NCBI GenBank assembly: GCA_029907545.1
Contig: JARYLR010000003.1
Coordinates: 23,090-87,089, forward strand
Direction: 5' to 3'
Source of the DNA: Candidatus Bathyarchaeota archaeon
GTDB taxonomy: Archaea > Thermoproteota > Bathyarchaeia > Bathyarchaeales > Bathycorpusculaceae
Length of the DNA: 64,000 bases
Position numbers and translations under genes: made by a program. Positions 5,707-18,363 of the stretch are shown here, one piece after another (within the stretch, counting starts at the first letter, position 1; each line of letters starts with the position of its first letter). The notes beneath the pieces are model-generated. The model made no database searches. It was not told the DNA's origin and worked only from the letters and a program-made list of their open reading frames with translations.

Positions 5707-8067
5707 TTATCCCTTCCTTTCTCTGACAAGCCTAGGCAGCAATGTTGGATCTGGGATTCTCTGCTCCTGCCAGCCTTTTTCCTCAAGCACCTTGACTATT
5801 TCATCTTTCATCGTTATAGGTATGTCAGTATTGTTCCGAACGAAAAGGTGAATATCATTTGGCAGGCTACCGAAGAGTCGCCGATGCAAATCAACGTAAT
5901 GAGTTAACTTTATTGCACGACCTTTAGATGTATCATTAGGCCTCATGCACATCTTTGCCAAAAGCACAATTGCCTCTTCCTTAGTTTCGGCCGCTGTGAA
6001 CAAGTGTTCGGGGGCAGGGCCTACATACACTTTATCGCCCGTCCGCGCGTCGAGAACACACCAGTCCTCTGGCTTGTCCTGTCTACCTAACAACATACGC
6101 CTATATTTAGAACCATGCGGCCCTACGACTACTGGCACGCCTAACCTCCAAAAGCCCGAGGCTATTGCGGCCGCCTTCTGAGAGTAGGCGCCCCAAGCAA
6201 GTCCCACAGCGCCGACCCGATTGTGGATGTAGTCAGCAATCTCCTCATAGTTTGCACGCAGTTTTCTCTTTGCAAAAATGTTAGCTATTTTTATTGCTGC
6301 ACCCGCTATATGCGCGTTGGACACGCATGAACCGACATTGACGATGCCGCCAGCATCAAATGCTCCAGTATACTTCTCGTAGAGGGTCTTTCCTTCTTCG
6401 TCCTTAACCATAGCCATGGACATGGCGGCGCATCCTGAGGTGACTACTATAAATCGGCGTTTAGCAAACTCTTCAGCTATTTCTGCAACTTCTTTGCCGC
6501 CTTGAGGATAGTTAGAGCATCCTACGATGGCTATGACGCCTGGAATTTCGCCTAGGACTATGGGTTGCCCAACGTTTCTTATTTCAACGTCTTGAATTGC
6601 CCCTCGGCCCACGCGCATTTTGAATTTCTCTTTACACAGTTTCTCTTCCCCAGCTTTTACAATAAAACTGTGCAGCGGAAAATCATTAGGACAAGCACTG
6701 TCGCAGCGGGCACAGCCAACGCAGCTTTCAAGTATCTCAGCCAGCGGGTTAAGGTCGCCTTTGGCTGCGGCTTTCATGGCTTCAGGTATCGGCTTATCGT
6801 TCGGGCAAGCACGTCTGCACTCATTGCATTCAGTGCACTCCTTTGCAGCCTCGACTATTTTCTCTAATTCCGGAATAATTTTGAATCTGCCTCTTTTAGG
6901 AGCAATCTTCATAACTGTTTCCACGGCAACTTCTCCGACTTTGTCGCTGTCGAGAATCAGCACTCCAGGAACCTTGTTTTCAACTAGATCAGCAATTGTC
7001 TTTTCAGAGGGGGTTGCCGTTCTATTCTCAAGTCCCAAACAGTTTTTCTCGCTTGACGCGATAACTGGCGTTTTCACTTTTTGCGCTTCAACAAGCGTAT
7101 CTGCCCGAATGCACTGCTCATCCACAACAATAAGGTCTGCCAGTCCACTTCGTATGTAACGCAGCTGCCACGATATAGGACCGACAATTTTCGCCATGGA
7201 ACTATAACGCGTGATGTCATGTGCCGTGCAGCATATGCCCACAACTTCAACCTTGCCTAACAATCCCTTCTCAGTTAGGTAATCAATGATGCCTACAGAA
7301 GAGGGAACGTTATGACCGATAACAAGTATCGTAGGTTTGGAGACATCAGCTACGCCGAATCCCAAATCTGTCAAAGAAGCCTCAGGATCTGCCTTAGGAA
7401 AACCTAGAACAGATATCTGAGCGATATCGGCGGCTTCCATACCTACCTGGTCGACCATGCCTGCGTGGAAAACTTTGGACTCGAAATCTAGATTGCTGCC
7501 TTCCTGTCCCGTGTGCGTGGATGAGAGCAACTGAGTTACCTGCTCTTCGCAGTAATCAAGCACATCTTCCAAGTCTCTTAGTTTTTCTGGTTTGATGCCG
7601 CAGACCAAGCGGGTTACTGGTGCTTCTATATCTATGTTCAAACCGCCTATGTCAAGCGGGCTGTTACGCCCGTACTTCTCTATCAGATGCTCCACCAAAT
7701 GTCTTCCATGCGCAACGTGCGTGGCGGCTCCAATGCAGCAGGCGAGAAGAACTATCCTTGATTGTTGACCAGCCATGTTCAGTCCGCATGCTCCCCGTTT
7801 GTCCTGTGTAAGATCACATTTGCCGAATGTGCACAAGCAGCATACATCGCAGTAAGGAAGGTAGAAGGGCCTGTAGCGTTGAAGGAGCTTCATGTCCCAG
7901 TCTCTTAAAGCAGTCACTGAGGGAAACGGTGTAGGTCCCGTAGGTTCAGTCCATGTTTCTTCGGCAACTCGTCCAACAGAAAGCTCAAGGTTCTTGAAAA
8001 GCCCGAAATCGCTCTTCAACTCGTCAATCTTTACATGTACGCCTTTTCGAGTCAAATGCAAGTGCAA
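5707..8067 (-). CDS. cdhA: acetyl-CoA decarbonylase/synthase complex subunit alpha (Ni-CODH catalytic subunit)
   Basis: 786 aa. It has N-terminal Cys clusters (CDVCCLCTFGKC...GACG), the archaeal-specific inserted 2x[4Fe-4S] ferredoxin domain (CTECNECRRACPNDKP ... CVGCARCDSACPNDFP) and C-cluster region motifs (GCSNYP, SCVSNAH). Confidence 0.92.
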   Translation of the reverse strand: MHLHLTRKGVHVKIDELKSDFGLFKNLELSVGRVAEETWTEPTGPTPFPSVTALRDWDMKLLQRYRPFYLPYCDVCCLCTFGKCDLTQDKRGACGLNMAGQQSRIVLLACCIGAATHVAHGRHLVEHLIEKYGRNSPLDIGGLNIDIEAPVTRLVCGIKPEKLRDLEDVLDYCEEQVTQLLSSTHTGQEGSNLDFESKVFHAGMVDQVGMEAADIAQISVLGFPKADPEASLTDLGFGVADVSKPTILVIGHNVPSSVGIIDYLTEKGLLGKVEVVGICCTAHDITRYSSMAKIVGPISWQLRYIRSGLADLIVVDEQCIRADTLVEAQKVKTPVIASSEKNCLGLENRTATPSEKTIADLVENKVPGVLILDSDKVGEVAVETVMKIAPKRGRFKIIPELEKIVEAAKECTECNECRRACPNDKPIPEAMKAAAKGDLNPLAEILESCVGCARCDSACPNDFPLHSFIVKAGEEKLCKEKFKMRVGRGAIQDVEIRNVGQPIVLGEIPGVIAIVGCSNYPQGGKEVAEIAEEFAKRRFIVVTSGCAAMSMAMVKDEEGKTLYEKYTGAFDAGGIVNVGSCVSNAHIAGAAIKIANIFAKRKLRANYEEIADYIHNRVGAVGLAWGAYSQKAAAIASGFWRLGVPVVVGPHGSKYRRMLLGRQDKPEDWCVLDARTGDKVYVGPAPEHLFTAAETKEEAIVLLAKMCMRPNDTSKGRAIKLTHYVDLHRRLFGSLPNDIHLFVRNNTDIPITMKDEIVKVLEEKGWQEQRIPDPTLLPRLVRERKG

Positions 8068-8192
8068 CCTCGAAGGTGTAGAACCTAATGAATAGGAGAA
8101 CGTTGCCTTAAAGCTTTCTGGAATATTTTTCCATTACGCATGCTCTACTAATGACTGACGATTTGGGCGGCACTGAAAAAATCCAGCATTAA

Positions 8193-8963
8193 TCACTGTC
8201 GGACGTATCCGGCTTCTTCCATTATTCTTTTGACTGAAAGAAACGCAGGCGATTCCTCAGAAATTTCCAATAGGGATTTTCCAGCTAAAACACTTTTTTC
8301 AACATCTTCGTCACGGGCTATCTTGCCGAGATATCTGAAACGCAGGGATTTCAAGATCTCAGACTCCAAGTGGTCAGGAAACCTAAAACCTCCCACAACG
8401 TAGAAATTTGCAAAGTCTATTTTGACTTCTTTGGCTATACGATGTGCTCTTTCGATGTGATCGAATGATTTTTTAGATGGATCTATCACGTCGAAGATGT
8501 CATCTACCTTCGATGTTATTCTTCGATTTAGATGCTCTAAGCCCGCTGGTGAATCAATAAGTACGTATCGGTAATTCTTAGTCATCGACTCTAACGCTCC
8601 TTTGAGAGCGGCATTTGGCATGCAGTAACATCCTTCAACCCATTTTGTTCCAACTGCCATAAGATCGAAATGTTCACCTTCATACATCCCATAAGTCCAA
8701 ATCCTACTTTCTATACGTTCAGTCGGTGGAATGCCGACCGTGGTTCCGCCTTGTTCTAGAAAAGTTTCAACAAGAAGCTCGGAGATCGTTCTTTTTCCTT
8801 CCTTTCTGAGGTCTATGCCTACCATCTCTGCAAGGTTTTGATCAGGATCAGCGTCCACTAAGAGCAGAGGAGTTGCTTTACTCTCGATGAAGTATTTTGT
8901 CATTAATGCTACGAAACTTGTTTTTCCTGTTCCCCCGCGGCCTATGACTGCAAGCTTTTTCAT
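8193..8963 (-). CDS. cooC: CooC/AcsF-type Ni-insertion accessory ATPase
   Basis: 256 aa. It has the deviant Walker A GRGGTGKTS and the conserved CxC metal motif (EGCYCMPNA) of the CooC/MinD family. Sits immediately upstream of cdhA. Confidence 0.8.
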   Translation of the reverse strand: MKKLAVIGRGGTGKTSFVALMTKYFIESKATPLLLVDADPDQNLAEMVGIDLRKEGKRTISELLVETFLEQGGTTVGIPPTERIESRIWTYGMYEGEHFDLMAVGTKWVEGCYCMPNAALKGALESMTKNYRYVLIDSPAGLEHLNRRITSKVDDIFDVIDPSKKSFDHIERAHRIAKEVKIDFANFYVVGGFRFPDHLESEILKSLRFRYLGKIARDEDVEKSVLAGKSLLEISEESPAFLSVKRIMEEAGYVRQ

Positions 8964-8987
8964 GTTTTCTCTTTCCTGTTAACTTTA

Positions 8988-9767
8988 TTAGGTAAGGTTT
9001 GATGTAAGCTTATCACCGAGGCTTTCTATGACACGAACAGCTTCTGAATTCTTATCTAGCAGAGGGCTTCTACCGTCTATTTCTGCCTCAGCAACCTTCG
9101 GGTCAAAAGGAACAAAATCTAGAATGTTCAGATGATTCCTTTCTGCAAAATGCACCATGACTTCCCGCTGGGCTCTGTTTCCAATCTTGTTGCCAACAAG
9201 AAAAACTTGTTTCATACCTGCTTCTAAGGCTAGATGGTGAATGTGCTTTGCGGTTTCAAGAGCCTTGAGACCAGCATCTGTTACTATTAGCATTTTGTCA
9301 ACTCGCTCTGCGGTGCCTCTACCCATATGCTCGACGCCAGCCTCCATATCAACAATGACCGCAAAACCTTGCTCATCGATAAAATGCCGAAGTAGAGCAC
9401 GGACGACAGCGTTGGCGGGGCAAGTGCAGCCAGCGCCCATTGATTTCACGGTTCCCATTACAATTAGGTTTGGTCCAAGAGGAGTTTTAACGGAATATTG
9501 GCGTATTATATCATCCACGGTGAAGGAAAGGCGAAAAACGCCTGAATAGCCAGTTTTAGTCTTGGACTCTATGAGTTTCGCATTCTCCGAAATAGGTTGA
9601 ATAAGGCGAGTCTCATCAGGAGACATGCCTAAGGTCAAAGCAAGGTTGGGAGAAGGATCAGCGTCAATAGCGATTGTTTTAAACCTTTTTTGCATAAAGA
9701 AAACGGCTAAGCCGCCTGCGATCAAAGTTTTGCCTACTCCGCCTTTGCCGGAAACTGCGATTTTCAA
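8988..9767 (-). CDS. cooC: CooC/AcsF-type Ni-insertion accessory ATPase (second paralogue)
   Basis: 259 aa. It has the Walker A SGKGGVGKT and the CxC motif (GAGCTCPANA). First gene of the cooC-cooC-cdhABCDE string. Confidence 0.8.
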   Translation of the reverse strand: MKIAVSGKGGVGKTLIAGGLAVFFMQKRFKTIAIDADPSPNLALTLGMSPDETRLIQPISENAKLIESKTKTGYSGVFRLSFTVDDIIRQYSVKTPLGPNLIVMGTVKSMGAGCTCPANAVVRALLRHFIDEQGFAVIVDMEAGVEHMGRGTAERVDKMLIVTDAGLKALETAKHIHHLALEAGMKQVFLVGNKIGNRAQREVMVHFAERNHLNILDFVPFDPKVAEAEIDGRSPLLDKNSEAVRVIESLGDKLTSNLT

Positions 9768-13681: not shown

Positions 13682-14554
13682 ATGACGGAACAAGGCACCA
13701 CGAAAATAGGAATATTCAAATGCGGAAACATCGCATCCTCACCACTATTTGAACTACTTCTTGACGAACTTGCCGACAGACAAGACATCAAAACTAGAAC
13801 CGTAGCCACGGGATCAAAAATGAGCGCTGAAGATGTCGAGGAAGCCCTGCCGAAAATCTTCGAGTTCGACCCAGACCTCCTAATTTTAATATCACCAAAC
13901 CCCTCAATCCCAGGACCAGCAAAAGTTAGGGAAAAACTGGCAAGCTGCGGTACCCCGAGTGTGGCGATCTCCGATGCCCCGGGAAAACGTGCAAAGGCTG
14001 AATTTGAAAAACAGGGCTTAGGCTACCTAATCATTACTGGTGACCCGCTTATTGGAGCACGAAGAGAGTTTCTAGATCCACTGGAGATGGCGATCTTCAA
14101 CGCAAATATAATCAAGGTGCTTGCCGCAACTGGCGTCTACAGGATAGTGCATCAAGAAATCGACAGCGTAGTCAAGGATATAAAGAAGGGTATGAACCCT
14201 CCTCTTTTGCCTAGACTTGTTGTTGATGTAAGCTTTATTCGCGATCGATCTGATTTCAAGAACCCTTATGCGAAAGCAAAAGCAATGGCTGCCTACGAGC
14301 TAACCGAGAAAATTGCCGAAATAAACACGCAAGCATGCTTCGTGGAAAAAGAGAGCGAGAAATACGTGCCCCTAGTGGCATGTGCTCACGAGATCGCTCA
14401 GGTGGCTGCTAGACTGGCTGAGGAGGCTAGAGAGATTGAAAAATACGGTGACACCCTTATGAGGAAGCCTCATGCAAAGGACGGTAGAACTAAATGCAAA
14501 AACAGCTTAATGAGCGCTCCAGTTTTCAGCGAAGAGTTTGGTAAGGATAACTAG
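13682..14554 (+). CDS. mtd: F420-dependent methylenetetrahydromethanopterin dehydrogenase
   Basis: 290 aa. Long blocks match Mtd as I remember it from methanogens: KIGIFKCGNI..., GLGYLIITGDPLIGARREFLDPLEMAIFNANIIKVLAATGVYRIV, FKNPYAKAKAMAA, KYVPLVACAHE. Confidence 0.9.
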   Translation: MTEQGTTKIGIFKCGNIASSPLFELLLDELADRQDIKTRTVATGSKMSAEDVEEALPKIFEFDPDLLILISPNPSIPGPAKVREKLASCGTPSVAISDAPGKRAKAEFEKQGLGYLIITGDPLIGARREFLDPLEMAIFNANIIKVLAATGVYRIVHQEIDSVVKDIKKGMNPPLLPRLVVDVSFIRDRSDFKNPYAKAKAMAAYELTEKIAEINTQACFVEKESEKYVPLVACAHEIAQVAARLAEEAREIEKYGDTLMRKPHAKDGRTKCKNSLMSAPVFSEEFGKDN

Positions 14555-14631
14555 AAGCCTTCCCTGAAATCCCGTGAGCAGTTTGTGTTAAACATATACA
14601 GTATATACTTGCATGTATGATATTTCGACTA

Positions 14632-14642
14632 TGTATATATAA
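14632..14642 (+). promoter_or_regulatory. TATA-box-like element upstream of the MtdA-like fusion gene
   Basis: TGTATATATAA lies about 40 nt upstream of ATG 14678 in an AT-rich spacer. This fits archaeal TATA spacing with a short leader. Confidence 0.4.
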
Positions 14643-14677: not shown

Positions 14678-16402
14678 ATGAAAACTCTGGAGATAACACC
14701 TCTAAAAGATAAGAAACTGTCAGTTTTAATCATTGAAAAAGAATACAATGAACCTTTCTGGCTGGCCGAACCATCGCCTAAAATGGAGTCACGCATACTC
14801 AATTCCCTATTCAAGCCATCAATAGCGTTTCATAACTTCATAGAAAGCATGATTCAGAAAGTCAAACCTAATTTCGCCACAGAAGAACTGGGAATGCGCT
14901 CTCAGAAAGAGTTCTATGAAGACAATGTCTTAGCTCAGATGTTTCAGAAAGAAAAAATCCCGTTCTTTCCAGTGGACATTGACGCAAACGCCAAAATGTA
15001 CCTTTCAACAACTCTAGACAAGAAAAGAGAGCTAAGAAACGAAATCTTGAAAGCGTTGACAAACACGTCTAAACAGAAAAACGCTGACCCCGTGGAAAAG
15101 GAGTACCTGATTGCCTATGGTCAATGCTTGCAACTTGAAATTGAGGAGCAGGAACGAGAAGTCAGCTTCCCGATAAGAGAAAGCTGGATTGTTATGGGCA
15201 TAGTGGAACAGGCTAAAGAGATAGGCGCTAAAGAAAACATTATCTGTCTTCATATCGGCAGTCCGGAACACACCGAAGGAATCAAGCAATTACTCGAATC
15301 GCTAGGTATCAAAGTTGAAGTGGTTAAGCTTTCGAAAAAGATAGTTTCAAGCTATGTCGATGCCCCTGCTTCCAGTGAACTTCAGAATCTCCTCCAGTCA
15401 ATGCAGATCCAAGTTAAACCCGTCGTTGGGAAAGCTTCGGAAACCGCACCCTACTTGCTCTTCTACTTGGACACTGATGAGAAAGCCAGTCCTTTTGACA
15501 TTTGCATGGCCTACGACGCTGGATATGACGCGGTTATACCCTACGAGAATGTGACCCCTGAAGATGCTAAAAAAATTGTTGAAGACGCAGTATTCTCTAG
15601 GGGACCAAAAGCAGTCAAGCACACATGCTTCTTTATTGGAGGCAAAAATGCTGACAGAGCAGAAGAAGTGCTGAAAGTTGTCAAAAATGCGATGTTTCCA
15701 CCTTTCAAAGCCCCCATAATAATTGACCCTGGAGGCGCATACACCACGGCCACTGCCATGGTAGCAAAAGTCGAAGAAGCACTGGTGTCCCACAACCTCG
15801 GCGAGCTTAAGGACAAGACATGTGCAGTCATGGGAACAGGAGCGGTGGGACAAATAGCAGCCGTATTATTAGCTAAGCTTGGATGCAATGTTATGATCGC
15901 TAGTTTGAACCCGAAACGCGTTGATGGAAAAGAACATGCTGAGAGCATCCAGAAGCTTCTTGCTGATGACTATGGCGTGGAGGTGCAAGGAGTATTTGCA
16001 CCCGCATCAGAAGATAAGCTTGCGCTTCTGAAACAGGCTGATGTGGTGTTCTGTGCTGGAACAAGAGGAGCCCGCATAATAGAAAAAGAACTCTTTAAAG
16101 AAATAAAACATATGAAAGTGCTTGTCGACGTAAACACCATACCGCCCTTCGGAATAGAAGGAGTAGAACTAAAAGACGACATGAGGGAACTTGCAACAGG
16201 CATTTTCGTAATCGGAGGACTTACAGTAGGTGATTTGAAGCACAAGCTTGAAAAGGAGATATTGAGAGATGCACGAAGCAACGGAAAGGAAGTCTACGAT
16301 TACAATATAGCTTTGGAACTTGCTAGAAATCTCGTTCAAAAAGAGCTTACGCCTTCAAAGCTGACGTTGACCTTGAGCTATCCTCCACCCAAGAAGGATT
16401 AG
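14678..16402 (+). CDS. fusion protein: uncharacterised N-terminal domain (about aa 1-255) + NAD(P)-dependent methylene-H4MPT/H4F dehydrogenase (MtdA/MtdB-like) domain
   Basis: 574 aa. The region from about aa 258 on (LLFYLDTDEKASPFDICMAYDAGYD...FIGGKN...PGGAYTTATAMVAKV...GTGAVGQIAAVLLAKLG) parallels Methylobacterium MtdA (LLFQFDTDATPSVFDVVVGYDGGAD...). I could not assign the N-terminal 255 aa to any family with confidence. Confidence 0.7.
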   Translation: MKTLEITPLKDKKLSVLIIEKEYNEPFWLAEPSPKMESRILNSLFKPSIAFHNFIESMIQKVKPNFATEELGMRSQKEFYEDNVLAQMFQKEKIPFFPVDIDANAKMYLSTTLDKKRELRNEILKALTNTSKQKNADPVEKEYLIAYGQCLQLEIEEQEREVSFPIRESWIVMGIVEQAKEIGAKENIICLHIGSPEHTEGIKQLLESLGIKVEVVKLSKKIVSSYVDAPASSELQNLLQSMQIQVKPVVGKASETAPYLLFYLDTDEKASPFDICMAYDAGYDAVIPYENVTPEDAKKIVEDAVFSRGPKAVKHTCFFIGGKNADRAEEVLKVVKNAMFPPFKAPIIIDPGGAYTTATAMVAKVEEALVSHNLGELKDKTCAVMGTGAVGQIAAVLLAKLGCNVMIASLNPKRVDGKEHAESIQKLLADDYGVEVQGVFAPASEDKLALLKQADVVFCAGTRGARIIEKELFKEIKHMKVLVDVNTIPPFGIEGVELKDDMRELATGIFVIGGLTVGDLKHKLEKEILRDARSNGKEVYDYNIALELARNLVQKELTPSKLTLTLSYPPPKKD

Positions 16403-17429
16403 CGACAATCTTGTAAGCGCGGTTTATAGCTATTTCAGCTATGTCAGCTGCACATGCCGCGATTCTTTTTATACTATCACGCAAAGAGCATATGGCACAA
16501 ATCAACAGCGGGTTCATTTCTTTGCTTAGAAATGCCTCTGAAGCCATTTTCCGATCTAAGACTTCAATGTCCCTTTGTTTTTCAAGTATCTCGTCGGCAA
16601 TCATCACATCTCGGGAAAAGAAAGCACTAACTGCCTTATCGTATAGGTCAACCGCCTTTCCCCCAGCCTCAAATGCACGAAGAATCAGGGTTTCTGGGAT
16701 TCTTTGCTTACTGCCACCAAGCATCACCACGTGACCGGCAATGTTAGCCGCTTGATCCGCAGCATACTCCACTCTGTAGACCAGAGTCTGATGATCTAAG
16801 CAATCTAGAGGCTCTAGACTGAGTTTATTCGCCAGAACCGAGTCCCTTGCAGCATCCCGAAGTAGCCTAGTGAGAAAGAAGCAGAAGTGGTCTACATCGT
16901 CATCAAGAGAGTATATGGCCTTTGCAAGTGTTACATCTTGGCTTTTAAGAGAGTTCATTGCGTCGCGACACATGGAATGAGAAATCAGATGCATCCTGTG
17001 GATTGCCAAATCTAGCGAGGCTCTAGATTCGTCTATCAAGGTTTGAATGTACATGCTTTTGGCATCTGACTCCATTATCCTCATGAAAAGCATGCGAACA
17101 ATGTTTCGAATTGCCTTACTCTGCGAAACTGAAAATACGCTTTTAGAGACAATCTTTATGCTGGAATATCCATTGAGGTAGCAGCCCACTATCTTTCTCA
17201 CAGTTAGAGATTCTCGTTCGTCTGGATTGACTTCTAGAGTTATTTCTTTAGGTTCTCTCTTCTGTTCCCCGCTTGGGAAGACAACGAGGGAACGGTCGCG
17301 CTGTACAGCGAAGGAGACCACGTCGCCTTTCTTGAGTTCATTCATTCTCAGCCAGTATTTTGGAAGAGATATAACAAGAGAGGATCGCCCTAGAGACATT
17401 ATTTTGCGTTCCATGTTCTCACACGGCAA
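16347..17429 (-). CDS. PhoU-family phosphate-uptake regulator with N-terminal AbrB/SpoVT DNA-binding domain
   Basis: 360 aa. An N-terminal swapped-hairpin-like motif (SLGRSSLVISLPKYWLRMNELKKGDVV) is followed by two PhoU-like helical repeats (DDDVDHFCFFLTRLL, ADQAANIAGHV, AADIAEIAINRA). Alternative start MERKIM at 17411. Confidence 0.75.
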   Translation of the reverse strand: MPCENMERKIMSLGRSSLVISLPKYWLRMNELKKGDVVSFAVQRDRSLVVFPSGEQKREPKEITLEVNPDERESLTVRKIVGCYLNGYSSIKIVSKSVFSVSQSKAIRNIVRMLFMRIMESDAKSMYIQTLIDESRASLDLAIHRMHLISHSMCRDAMNSLKSQDVTLAKAIYSLDDDVDHFCFFLTRLLRDAARDSVLANKLSLEPLDCLDHQTLVYRVEYAADQAANIAGHVVMLGGSKQRIPETLILRAFEAGGKAVDLYDKAVSAFFSRDVMIADEILEKQRDIEVLDRKMASEAFLSKEMNPLLICAICSLRDSIKRIAACAADIAEIAINRAYKIVANPSWVEDSSRSTSALKA

Positions 17430-17553: not shown

Positions 17554-18363
17554 GTGAAACTAAAGACTGAGAACAGAGAGACAACGCTTGTTTTTGTTTA
17601 CAGTGGCGAGTTCGCGGAACGGGTAATCCGCAACCTAATCAATGACCCAAGCTTCTGCAAGTCATGTGGATTATACTGTGATTCATGCAAATACGGTGTG
17701 TACAGCCATGTCCGAAACATTCGCGCTGCCATAGAGCTACCTGATCCCTCTGACTTGCCAGCTTTCATAGATGAACCTGAAAACTTCATGCCGAAGAACC
17801 TGCCCAAAACTGACCTCTGTGTAGCCTCAGGACTTCATAAGGATCTGTTGCTCGAGCTGCCTAAGCATCTTGAGCGAGCTGGAGTAAAGGGAATAGTTGT
17901 GCCTATTGAAGACTTTGTTGAGGTGCCTTCGGGACTTCGCATACAAGTGGAAGAGAAATGTCAAGAGCTTGGTTTAGAGAGCGCTTTTCCGAAGCCCTTC
18001 TGTTCGCTTACTGCTTCGCAAGACAGGCCTGTTATCTCGAAGCTTGTGGCTGAGCTGAAGATTGGAAGACCGTTGCTGGAGGTATCTACTGCGACTGTAC
18101 ATAACCATGAGGTAATAGAGTCTGTTGCTGTAAAAAGGAGTGCGCCATGCGGCTCAACATGGTATATTGCGAGAAAATTCCTCAGAGTTGAAACAGAAAA
18201 AAACATGCTGTATGATGTAGTAGCGAAGGCGCACCACAGCTATCCATGCACTGCAACGATGGCTGTTGATCCAGAAGCAAAGGAGCCTATACTTCACATG
18301 GGCGGTTACATAATAAGAGAAGAAGTGGAGAAAGCTGTAGCGAATGCGCGGCTTAAGCCTTAG
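17554..18363 (+). CDS. DUF166-family protein (archaeal, Cys-rich)
   Basis: 269 aa with a GTG start. The pattern LVFVYSGEFAERVIRNL...CKSCGLYCDSCKY...LPAFIDEPENFMP...GIVVPIED matches my recollection of DUF166/COG1810. Confidence 0.6.
   Translation: MKLKTENRETTLVFVYSGEFAERVIRNLINDPSFCKSCGLYCDSCKYGVYSHVRNIRAAIELPDPSDLPAFIDEPENFMPKNLPKTDLCVASGLHKDLLLELPKHLERAGVKGIVVPIEDFVEVPSGLRIQVEEKCQELGLESAFPKPFCSLTASQDRPVISKLVAELKIGRPLLEVSTATVHNHEVIESVAVKRSAPCGSTWYIARKFLRVETEKNMLYDVVAKAHHSYPCTATMAVDPEAKEPILHMGGYIIREEVEKAVANARLKP

Follow-up and report, generated by a model that had tools for sequence, protein, structure and literature searches.

The X-mtdA locus

The window analysed here, a stretch of 64,000 nucleotides from contig JARYLR010000003.1 of a Candidatus Bathyarchaeota archaeon, contains an open reading frame (ORF), which we call X-mtdA, in which an N-terminal domain of an undescribed family, X, is fused to a dehydrogenase domain of the MtdA type. 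X-mtdA lies between the gene of Mtd, the methylene-tetrahydromethanopterin (H4MPT) dehydrogenase that depends on coenzyme F420, and a convergent regulator gene. The ORF occupies positions 14678-16402 of the forward strand and encodes 574 aa from an ATG start, with no interruption in the ORF listing; a stop is found only six in-frame codons upstream of the ATG, the open frame corresponding to 580 aa.

Three parts can be distinguished, all on the forward strand. The core of X (residues 1-225; 14678..15352) was delimited with AlphaFold models, conservation tables and hhalign comparison with TraB. It is followed by an inter-domain linker (residues 226-258; 15353..15451) that is modelled with low confidence, its predicted local distance difference test score (pLDDT) being 55-61 in the full-length model and below 50 in the domain model, although its sequence (SMQIQVKPV) is conserved. 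The remainder (residues 259-574 and the stop codon; 15452..16402) was recognized through Pfam, PDB and Foldseek as an MtdA-type, putatively NAD(P)-dependent methylene-H4MPT dehydrogenase domain. A preliminary description of this DNA had placed an extra domain at 14678-15448, and this interval does cover it, the core running to 15352 and the linker to residue 258.

The C-terminal 316 residues are an MtdA-type dehydrogenase. Pfam detects Mpt_N at residues 272-351 (E 2.5e-29; 101.7 bits versus a gathering cut-off of 27), followed by Rossmann-type matches at residues 356-490, and phmmer against PDB matches residues 259-556 to residues 4-291 of the M. extorquens MtdA (6tlk_A, 303 aa; E 1.3e-35), 1lu9 being matched as well. 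The full-length AlphaFold model (pLDDT 85.4) superposes on MtdA in Foldseek with a template modelling (TM) score of 0.93, a root-mean-square deviation of 2.0 A, 30% identity and E 7e-24; this search returned solely MtdA and Rossmann folds, the signal of X being swamped. The domain would presumably interconvert methylene- and methenyl-H4MPT with NADP(H). Use of NADP(H) is consistent with the basic segment LNPKR after Rossmann strand 2, which aligns with CGRKLDK of MtdA.

Residues 1-258 matched nothing in Pfam (E<0.01), NCBIfam or the PDB sequences, whether the query was the sequence by itself, a set of 15 diverse family members or a profile. Moreover, X gave no match to the Pfam and NCBIfam models of the cyclohydrolase Mch (PF02289), of FolD (PF00763/PF02882) or of Fae, and a separate canonical Mch is encoded in the genome. 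The preliminary description, which had regarded the N-terminal half as unassigned and as distinct from Mch, Fae and FolD, was right in both respects.

Conservation of the fusion

The X-MtdA fusion is a genuine two-domain protein, because the same architecture is found in hundreds of independent assemblies across two phyla. A word-indexed protein search limited to the N-terminal domain found it in 741 database proteins, 316-1004 aa long; the 120 matches listed are nearly all of 572-594 aa, and all of them carry Mpt_N. A locus survey with one genome per species found 141 loci, 80 of which were kept for counts of gene order and fusion; these are labelled Bathyarchaeota or Bathyarchaeia, except for two labelled as bacteria and one as 'uncultured archaeon'. 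Both domains are in one frame in 71 of the 76 X-containing ORFs of the 80 loci, so that the fusion, which the preliminary description proposed to check in orthologues, is upheld by them. Four of the five remaining ORFs are truncated at contig ends. The fifth belongs to a Bathyarchaeia locus (L059 8001-9230), in which X stands with a partial MtdA in a 410-aa ORF away from the contig ends; a frameshift, decay to a pseudogene or faulty assembly could account for this short ORF.

Logan contigs at 15350-15500 were thin and derived from a related hot-spring strain, and none of them spans the domain junction. That the long ORF is an artefact (an assembly chimera, a missed stop or a frameshift), or that its N-terminal half is non-functional filler, is virtually excluded: the artefact was discarded on the orthologue evidence just given, and across Bathyarchaeia X has invariant motifs and is 53-74% identical, nearly matching the conservation of the enzyme domain. 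Some metagenome-assembled genomes (MAGs) labelled Sulfotelmatobacter, Limnocylindrales and Nanopelagicaceae hold the archaeal gene cluster or an X gene (L055, L066; P0396); such bacteria-labelled carriers are likely mis-binned contigs or mislabelled bins.

Distribution and phylogeny of X

The X family is small: when 1.84 billion representative proteins were scanned exhaustively with HMMER, only 74 clusters were obtained. It was found only in Bathyarchaeia and in Asgard or Asgard-labelled archaea. Where longer X proteins were scanned (five of the clusters), the other domain was always Mpt_N, weakly so in one. Database labels for X proteins are 'methylene-tetrahydromethanopterin dehydrogenase' or 'hypothetical protein' only, and our literature search found nothing relevant on the domain, on the fusion or on MtdA or MtdB in Bathyarchaeia or Asgards. 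X is an undescribed family, which extends the TIKI/TraB superfamily at most remotely.

In the second phylum, which is that of the Lokiarchaeota-labelled genome G061, X is present in 73 of 251 genomes and its loci show four arrangements: X-MtdA; X-MtdA accompanied by X', a divergent paralogue; X', X and MtdA as three genes; and X' and X followed by X-MtdA. MAGs labelled Lokiarchaeota, Promethearchaeota, Hermod-, Hod- and Thorarchaeota commonly encode X as a protein of its own, about 240 aa long; every one of these proteins bears the annotation 'hypothetical' and lacks a Pfam domain. At one Lokiarchaeota-labelled locus (L085) X (8001-8759) overlaps a separate gene for a 306-aa MtdA (8713-9633), and in protein P0158 (locus L088) the order of the domains is reversed, MtdA-X. 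X' keeps residues of the fold type (Y108, W170 and H192) and has lost E70, E168 and H198. It measures about 205-227 aa and is located directly upstream of X or X-MtdA in many second-phylum genomes (L085 7370-7984; L100-L122); these features suggest that X' and X may assemble into a hetero-oligomer. In some loci as many as five X-type matches stand in tandem (for example G208:C8).

In a maximum-likelihood tree of MtdA domains, every MtdA associated with X (fused, reversed and separate but adjacent) falls into one group with support 94/80, apart from the short X-less MtdA of Bathyarchaeia, which form a clade of their own (support 99/95). The separate MtdA genes nest among the fusions, which suggests a later fission of X-MtdA. 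X is in fact the dedicated partner of one MtdA group, to which it is fused at the N-terminus or C-terminus or linked as an overlapping gene.

Two kinds of X gene stand outside this association. One is a divergent Thorarchaeota-labelled X without MtdA nearby. The other is a trio of helix-turn-helix (HTH), V4R and X genes, also without MtdA nearby, which counts against the coupling of X to the dehydrogenase proposed below. The trio was seen at three loci (L001 1638-3687; L096 3439-5160; L097 616-2298), every time with a small IclR-like HTH gene and a V4R gene. In two of the three members of this subfamily R-K-M/T stands in place of E20/E22, and H198 is sometimes Y; at L097 the trio is followed by HdrABC/MvhD-like genes.

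Predicted fold and conserved residues of X

According to the AlphaFold models, the core of X is an alpha/beta domain in which five beta strands alternate with helices, with a long helical hairpin at residues 103-181; its pLDDT is 76-94 in the full-length model, and the model of X alone has a pLDDT of 71. Such a predicted layout would suit a doubly wound alpha/beta domain whose sheet is parallel. The conserved residues are E20-K-E22-Y-N-E-P-F, E69/E70-G72-R74, D100/D102 and Y108 in the first half, and R167-E168-W170 and H192/S195-P196-H198-G201 in the second. E-K-E-Y-N-E-P-F is invariant in the first Bathyarchaeia alignment of 31 sequences, while R74, Y108, R167, E168 and W170 never change in MtdA-associated X, whether in the Bathyarchaeia alignment or in the set from the second phylum. 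In the Bathyarchaeia alignment E70 and H198 each reach at least 90% conservation; of the 22 fused proteins of the second phylum, 18 have E and 4 have D at position 70, and 21 retain H198. The long helix, too, has one conserved face (Y143, Y147, G148, Q149, Q152, E154, E157, E161).

Probable remote relationship to the TIKI/TraB superfamily

Domains of the TIKI superfamily have a common parallel-sheet core and a site of two histidines and two glutamates, with which they hydrolyse amide and ester bonds through a Glu/His-activated water; in the member RRSP the second Glu and the second His form the essential pair, and mutation of an Arg (4001) also abolishes activity (PMC6254334). TraB and X share the order of four motifs, the first two following strands 2 and 3, the third lying on a helix and the fourth following a late strand, namely KP..(hydrophobic)E(L/E), (hydrophobic)ID, R..W(I/M) and (hydrophobic)G..H.eGIk.LL. 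In hhalign, with X profiles built from 170-315 sequences and a narrow TraB profile built from 120 Bathyarchaeia homologues, X residues 160-208 align with TraB 164-206 at P 2.4e-5 to 3.6e-5 (probability 72-76%) over the pattern (E)R..h..R..WI ... hhh.G..H.eGIk.LL, compared with P 0.06-0.47 for four unrelated control profiles and about 0.3 for the reversed TraB profile. With the N-terminal halves alone, the best local match is colinear and pairs KPxF.TEELG.R with KPTDLAIELD..R (P 0.05-0.11). Reciprocal scores of profile hidden Markov models (HMMs) against sequences are 11-15 bits between X and TraB, and at most 4 bits for controls. No similarity of X to the profiles of Mtd, FrhB-like proteins, AbrB-PhoU or the MtdA domain was found with hhalign (P 0.42 for Mtd).

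Several observations weigh against this relationship, and with it against the explanation of X given below. The hhalign match is local, about 40 columns, and its TraB profile is drawn from Bathyarchaeia only. The Pfam model of TraB (PF01963) has no match at E<=0.001 anywhere in this genome, and TraB is absent from the matches of 15 X proteins scanned at E<=10. X lacks the first GxxH, which holds the first catalytic His of the TIKI site, and has E-K-E-Y-N-E-P-F instead; the 2His/2Glu constellation is incomplete, with the strand-2 Glu (E70) and the late His (H198) kept in MtdA-associated X. Foldseek with the model of X alone gave generic alpha/beta matches, none of them significant (best E 0.016, TM no higher than 0.31), and its top 50 rows contain no TIKI fold, including ChaN 2G5G, Bcr135 3B55 and HopBA1 5T09.

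Because the Pfam model is silent, the first GxxH is absent and Foldseek with the model of X alone shows no TIKI fold among its 50 best rows, X is not a member of the TraB family in the strict sense. Nevertheless, the profile comparisons suggest that X is probably a remote relative of the TIKI/TraB superfamily. The faint likeness to TraB/GumN/ChaN noted in the preliminary description therefore stands as far as profile-profile and reciprocal HMM scores go, and finds no support in the Pfam model, in the first motif or in Foldseek, the comparison of the modelled N-terminal domain that it put forward having yielded no significant match.

PF01963 does find TraB proteins of about 235 aa in five related genomes. 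These Bathyarchaeia proteins (L090-L094, P0213-P0332) have a conserved Cys-rich insert, C..CP....C.G.CEF, and some are labelled 'radical SAM protein with SPASM domain' by JGI (the Joint Genome Institute), which looks like a mis-annotation.

C1 pathway context

The one-carbon (C1) pathway context was surveyed in 61 genomes, that is, this one (1.46 Mb, 97% complete) and 60 relatives, 31 of which in all contain X. This genome has a single MtdA-type gene, and its canonical Mch, the only MCH match, is encoded separately, on a different contig. Of the 31 X-positive genomes 28 have Mtd, as against only 9 of the 30 X-negative ones (Fisher 1.3e-6), so that X-MtdA is an addition to genomes already using F420-dependent Mtd; moreover, Mtd also occurs in a Lokiarchaeota-labelled genome in which X and MtdA are separate genes. 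Short MtdA occurs in 14 of the 61 genomes, all 14 without X and without Mtd, and in these the methylene/methenyl-H4MPT step may depend on NAD(P)H rather than on F420. The short proteins are of about 300 aa (L124-L135) and belong to G003, G017, G020, G022, G024, G026, G027, G030, G031, G033, G034, G044, G052 and G060.

Mch was found in 52 of the 61 genomes, including 28 of the 31 X-positive ones. Because canonical Mch is present, X is not needed as a replacement cyclohydrolase, and the idea of such a replacement is weakened in this genome and in those 28 relatives alike. FolD is above the cut-off in one of the 61 genomes, its domain THF_DHG_CYH_C having no match in this one, and Fhs (formate-tetrahydrofolate ligase) in none; Fno (TIGR01915) is above the cut-off in two, and not in this genome. 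In Methylobacterium, MtdA plus Fch serve the tetrahydrofolate (H4F) branch. A folate branch of this kind, as a second carrier for X-MtdA, is unsupported here, FolD and Fhs being absent.

Genomic neighbourhood and candidate regulatory elements

In most loci X-mtdA is preceded by mtd on the same strand and followed by a convergent abrB-phoU gene. In the window, mtd occupies 13682..14554 on the forward strand (Pfam MTD, E 4e-114, and an NCBIfam equivalog), and the AbrB/SpoVT-PhoU regulator gene (Pfam MazE_antitoxin and PhoU) occupies 16347..17429 on the reverse strand, overlapping the 3' end of X-mtdA. Of the 80 loci, 64 have an Mtd gene, which in nearly all cases immediately precedes X-mtdA in the same orientation, and AbrB-PhoU adjoins X-mtdA in 66 of the 80, as well as at L088, which has the reversed fusion, and at L123. 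An FrhB-like gene is often near the locus. A DUF166 gene, two genes downstream of X-mtdA (17554-18363), recurs in at least four loci (L005, L031, L035, L064).

The spacer between mtd and X-mtdA contains a perfect palindrome, ATATAC-A-GTATAT (14594..14606, no strand assigned), 84 nt before the ATG, and about 33 of 64 orthologous spacers (L005-L084) have a TATATA-N2-3-TATATA palindrome 82-97 nt ahead of the start codon. This element is a candidate operator, perhaps of AbrB-PhoU, or a candidate twin TATA element. A second TATA-like sequence, TATATATAA, is located at 14634-14642, and GAGGG stands 7 nt before the X-mtdA ATG.

At L088 (3110-8731) AbrB-PhoU precedes the reversed fusion, which is followed by a gene for a 183-aa protein and by NfnA-like, NfnB-like and URO-D/MtaA-like genes; this is an NADPH- and ferredoxin-linked neighbourhood.

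Proposed role of X-MtdA

The explanation that we favour, and to which we give about an even chance as a whole, is that X is a dedicated module, a remodelled TIKI relative, that brings a second site coupled to the MtdA domain. X is most likely very remotely related to the TraB/PrgY/GumN-TIKI hydrolase superfamily; it keeps E70, R167/E168 on the following helix and the second His, H198, and has E-K-E-Y in place of the first GxxH motif. It may contribute a conserved polar pocket for a small molecule at the C-terminal edge of the beta sheet, physically coupled to the dehydrogenase and either of a hydrolase type or binding an effector or cofactor. The MtdA domain would provide an NADP(H) link at the methylene/methenyl-H4MPT node, so that NADP-linked X-MtdA could act as a controlled or bifunctional side branch beside the Mtd encoded upstream, and in genomes without Fno the two enzymes might pass reducing equivalents between F420H2 and NADPH.

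This explanation meets further difficulties besides those of the TIKI relationship and the HTH-V4R-X trio. The full-length AlphaFold model has a predicted TM score of 0.55 and shows no confident packing between the domains; no hydrolytic step is obviously missing here, Mch being present; and in the wider X family H198, R167/E168 and E20/E22 vary, which argues against one universal catalytic mechanism.

What the pocket would do can be graded in the same way. That it is catalytic, as a hydrolase acting on methenyl- or formyl-H4MPT, is rather unlikely, that it binds an effector or cofactor is about as doubtful, and that it mediates docking to Mtd is distinctly unlikely; what is left of the probability goes to other roles. 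Taken as a single proposal, X as a TIKI-fold hydrolase for methenyl- or N-formyl-H4MPT, or else as a docking subunit that makes Mtd and MtdA an F420H2:NADP+ transhydrogenase, is a tentative possibility.

Two rival explanations of the whole protein were weighed. In the first, X is a true hydrolase on a C1-pterin, either a methenyl-H4MPT cyclohydrolase (possibly giving another formyl isomer) or an N-formyl-H4MPT deformylase, and X-MtdA would be the archaeal counterpart, with a TIKI fold, of bifunctional FolD. FolD is an established precedent for the fusion of a dehydrogenase with a cyclohydrolase, FolD and Fhs are themselves absent from this group, enzymes of consecutive steps typically show such fusion in either order and such overlap of genes, and a degenerate X' beside an intact X resembles a pair of enzyme and pseudo-enzyme; moreover, X keeps the Glu/His pair with which TIKI members activate water (PMC6254334), plus an Arg. 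However, this genome and 28 of 31 X-positive relatives have a canonical Mch, short-MtdA genomes manage without X, the would-be catalytic residues are variable across the wider family, X lacks the first His of the TIKI site, and neither Pfam, NCBIfam nor Foldseek reveals a likeness to any cyclohydrolase in sequence or fold. On this balance we consider a true hydrolase rather unlikely.

In the second, which seems to us improbable, X is a non-catalytic docking or regulatory module that ties X-MtdA to Mtd or gates it by an effector, and the pair is a controlled F420H2:NADP+ transhydrogenase working through the methenyl/methylene-H4MPT couple. The co-occurrence of X with Mtd (P 1.3e-6), the position of X-MtdA directly downstream of Mtd in most loci, the presence of Mtd in the Lokiarchaeota-labelled genome with separate X and MtdA, the confinement of X-less MtdA to genomes without Mtd and the lack of Fno all point in this direction; the conserved face of the long helix would fit a protein interface, and other X genes lie beside HTH/V4R regulators. 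Against this, mtd is not adjacent to X in Asgard-labelled loci, three X-positive genomes have no Mtd, and regulatory domains are typically promiscuous, whereas X has a single fusion partner.

Significance

Bathyarchaeia and Asgard archaea are among the most abundant archaea of sediments, and models of how they obtain carbon and energy give their H4MPT-dependent Wood-Ljungdahl pathway a central place, as do models of eukaryogenesis in the case of the Asgards. In published reconstructions just one 'Mtd' step is listed (PMC10321748). For the methylene-H4MPT step, two dehydrogenases are encoded in many of these genomes, the NAD(P)-type one with a conserved and unannotated partner domain, to which genomes of the Asgard-labelled phylum add a degenerate paralogue. 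The role of X would clarify how F420, NADP(H) and C1 units are connected without Fno, FolD or Fhs; it would also show the reaction of a family that has no Pfam model, and whether the TIKI fold reaches into cofactor metabolism. If the hydrolase or the docking explanation were true, X would be a new and widely conserved component of the archaeal Wood-Ljungdahl/H4MPT pathway in Bathyarchaeia and Asgard archaea.

Comparison with known systems

TraB/PrgY/GumN proteins (PF01963), which belong to the TIKI superfamily together with Tiki, erythromycin esterases, ChaN and the C2 domain of RRSP, resemble X in size, about 230 aa. The long helical hairpin insertion sets X apart from them, and to our knowledge no TIKI member is a partner of a C1 dehydrogenase. 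The predicted five-strand alternating fold of X would fit the alpha/beta parallel-sheet core of the superfamily (PMC6254334).

The likeness to FolD, the methylene-H4F dehydrogenase and methenyl-H4F cyclohydrolase, lies in a second function within one polypeptide and is a conceptual precedent only: there is no relationship in sequence or fold, and FolD has both activities in one site, whereas in X-MtdA X is a separate domain. F420-dependent Mtd (PF01993) shares with X-MtdA the substrate couple; its gene lies immediately upstream and its phyletic distribution closely follows that of X-MtdA, but its fold is unrelated and its coenzyme different.

The closest known counterparts are MtdA and MtdB of methylotrophic bacteria (1lu9, 6tlk), whose whole chain, Mpt_N plus a Rossmann domain, is matched by the C-terminal domain of X-MtdA. 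The bacterial enzymes are single modules of about 290 aa; the archaeal group, in contrast, carries or adjoins the 225-aa X and branches apart from the X-less archaeal MtdA.

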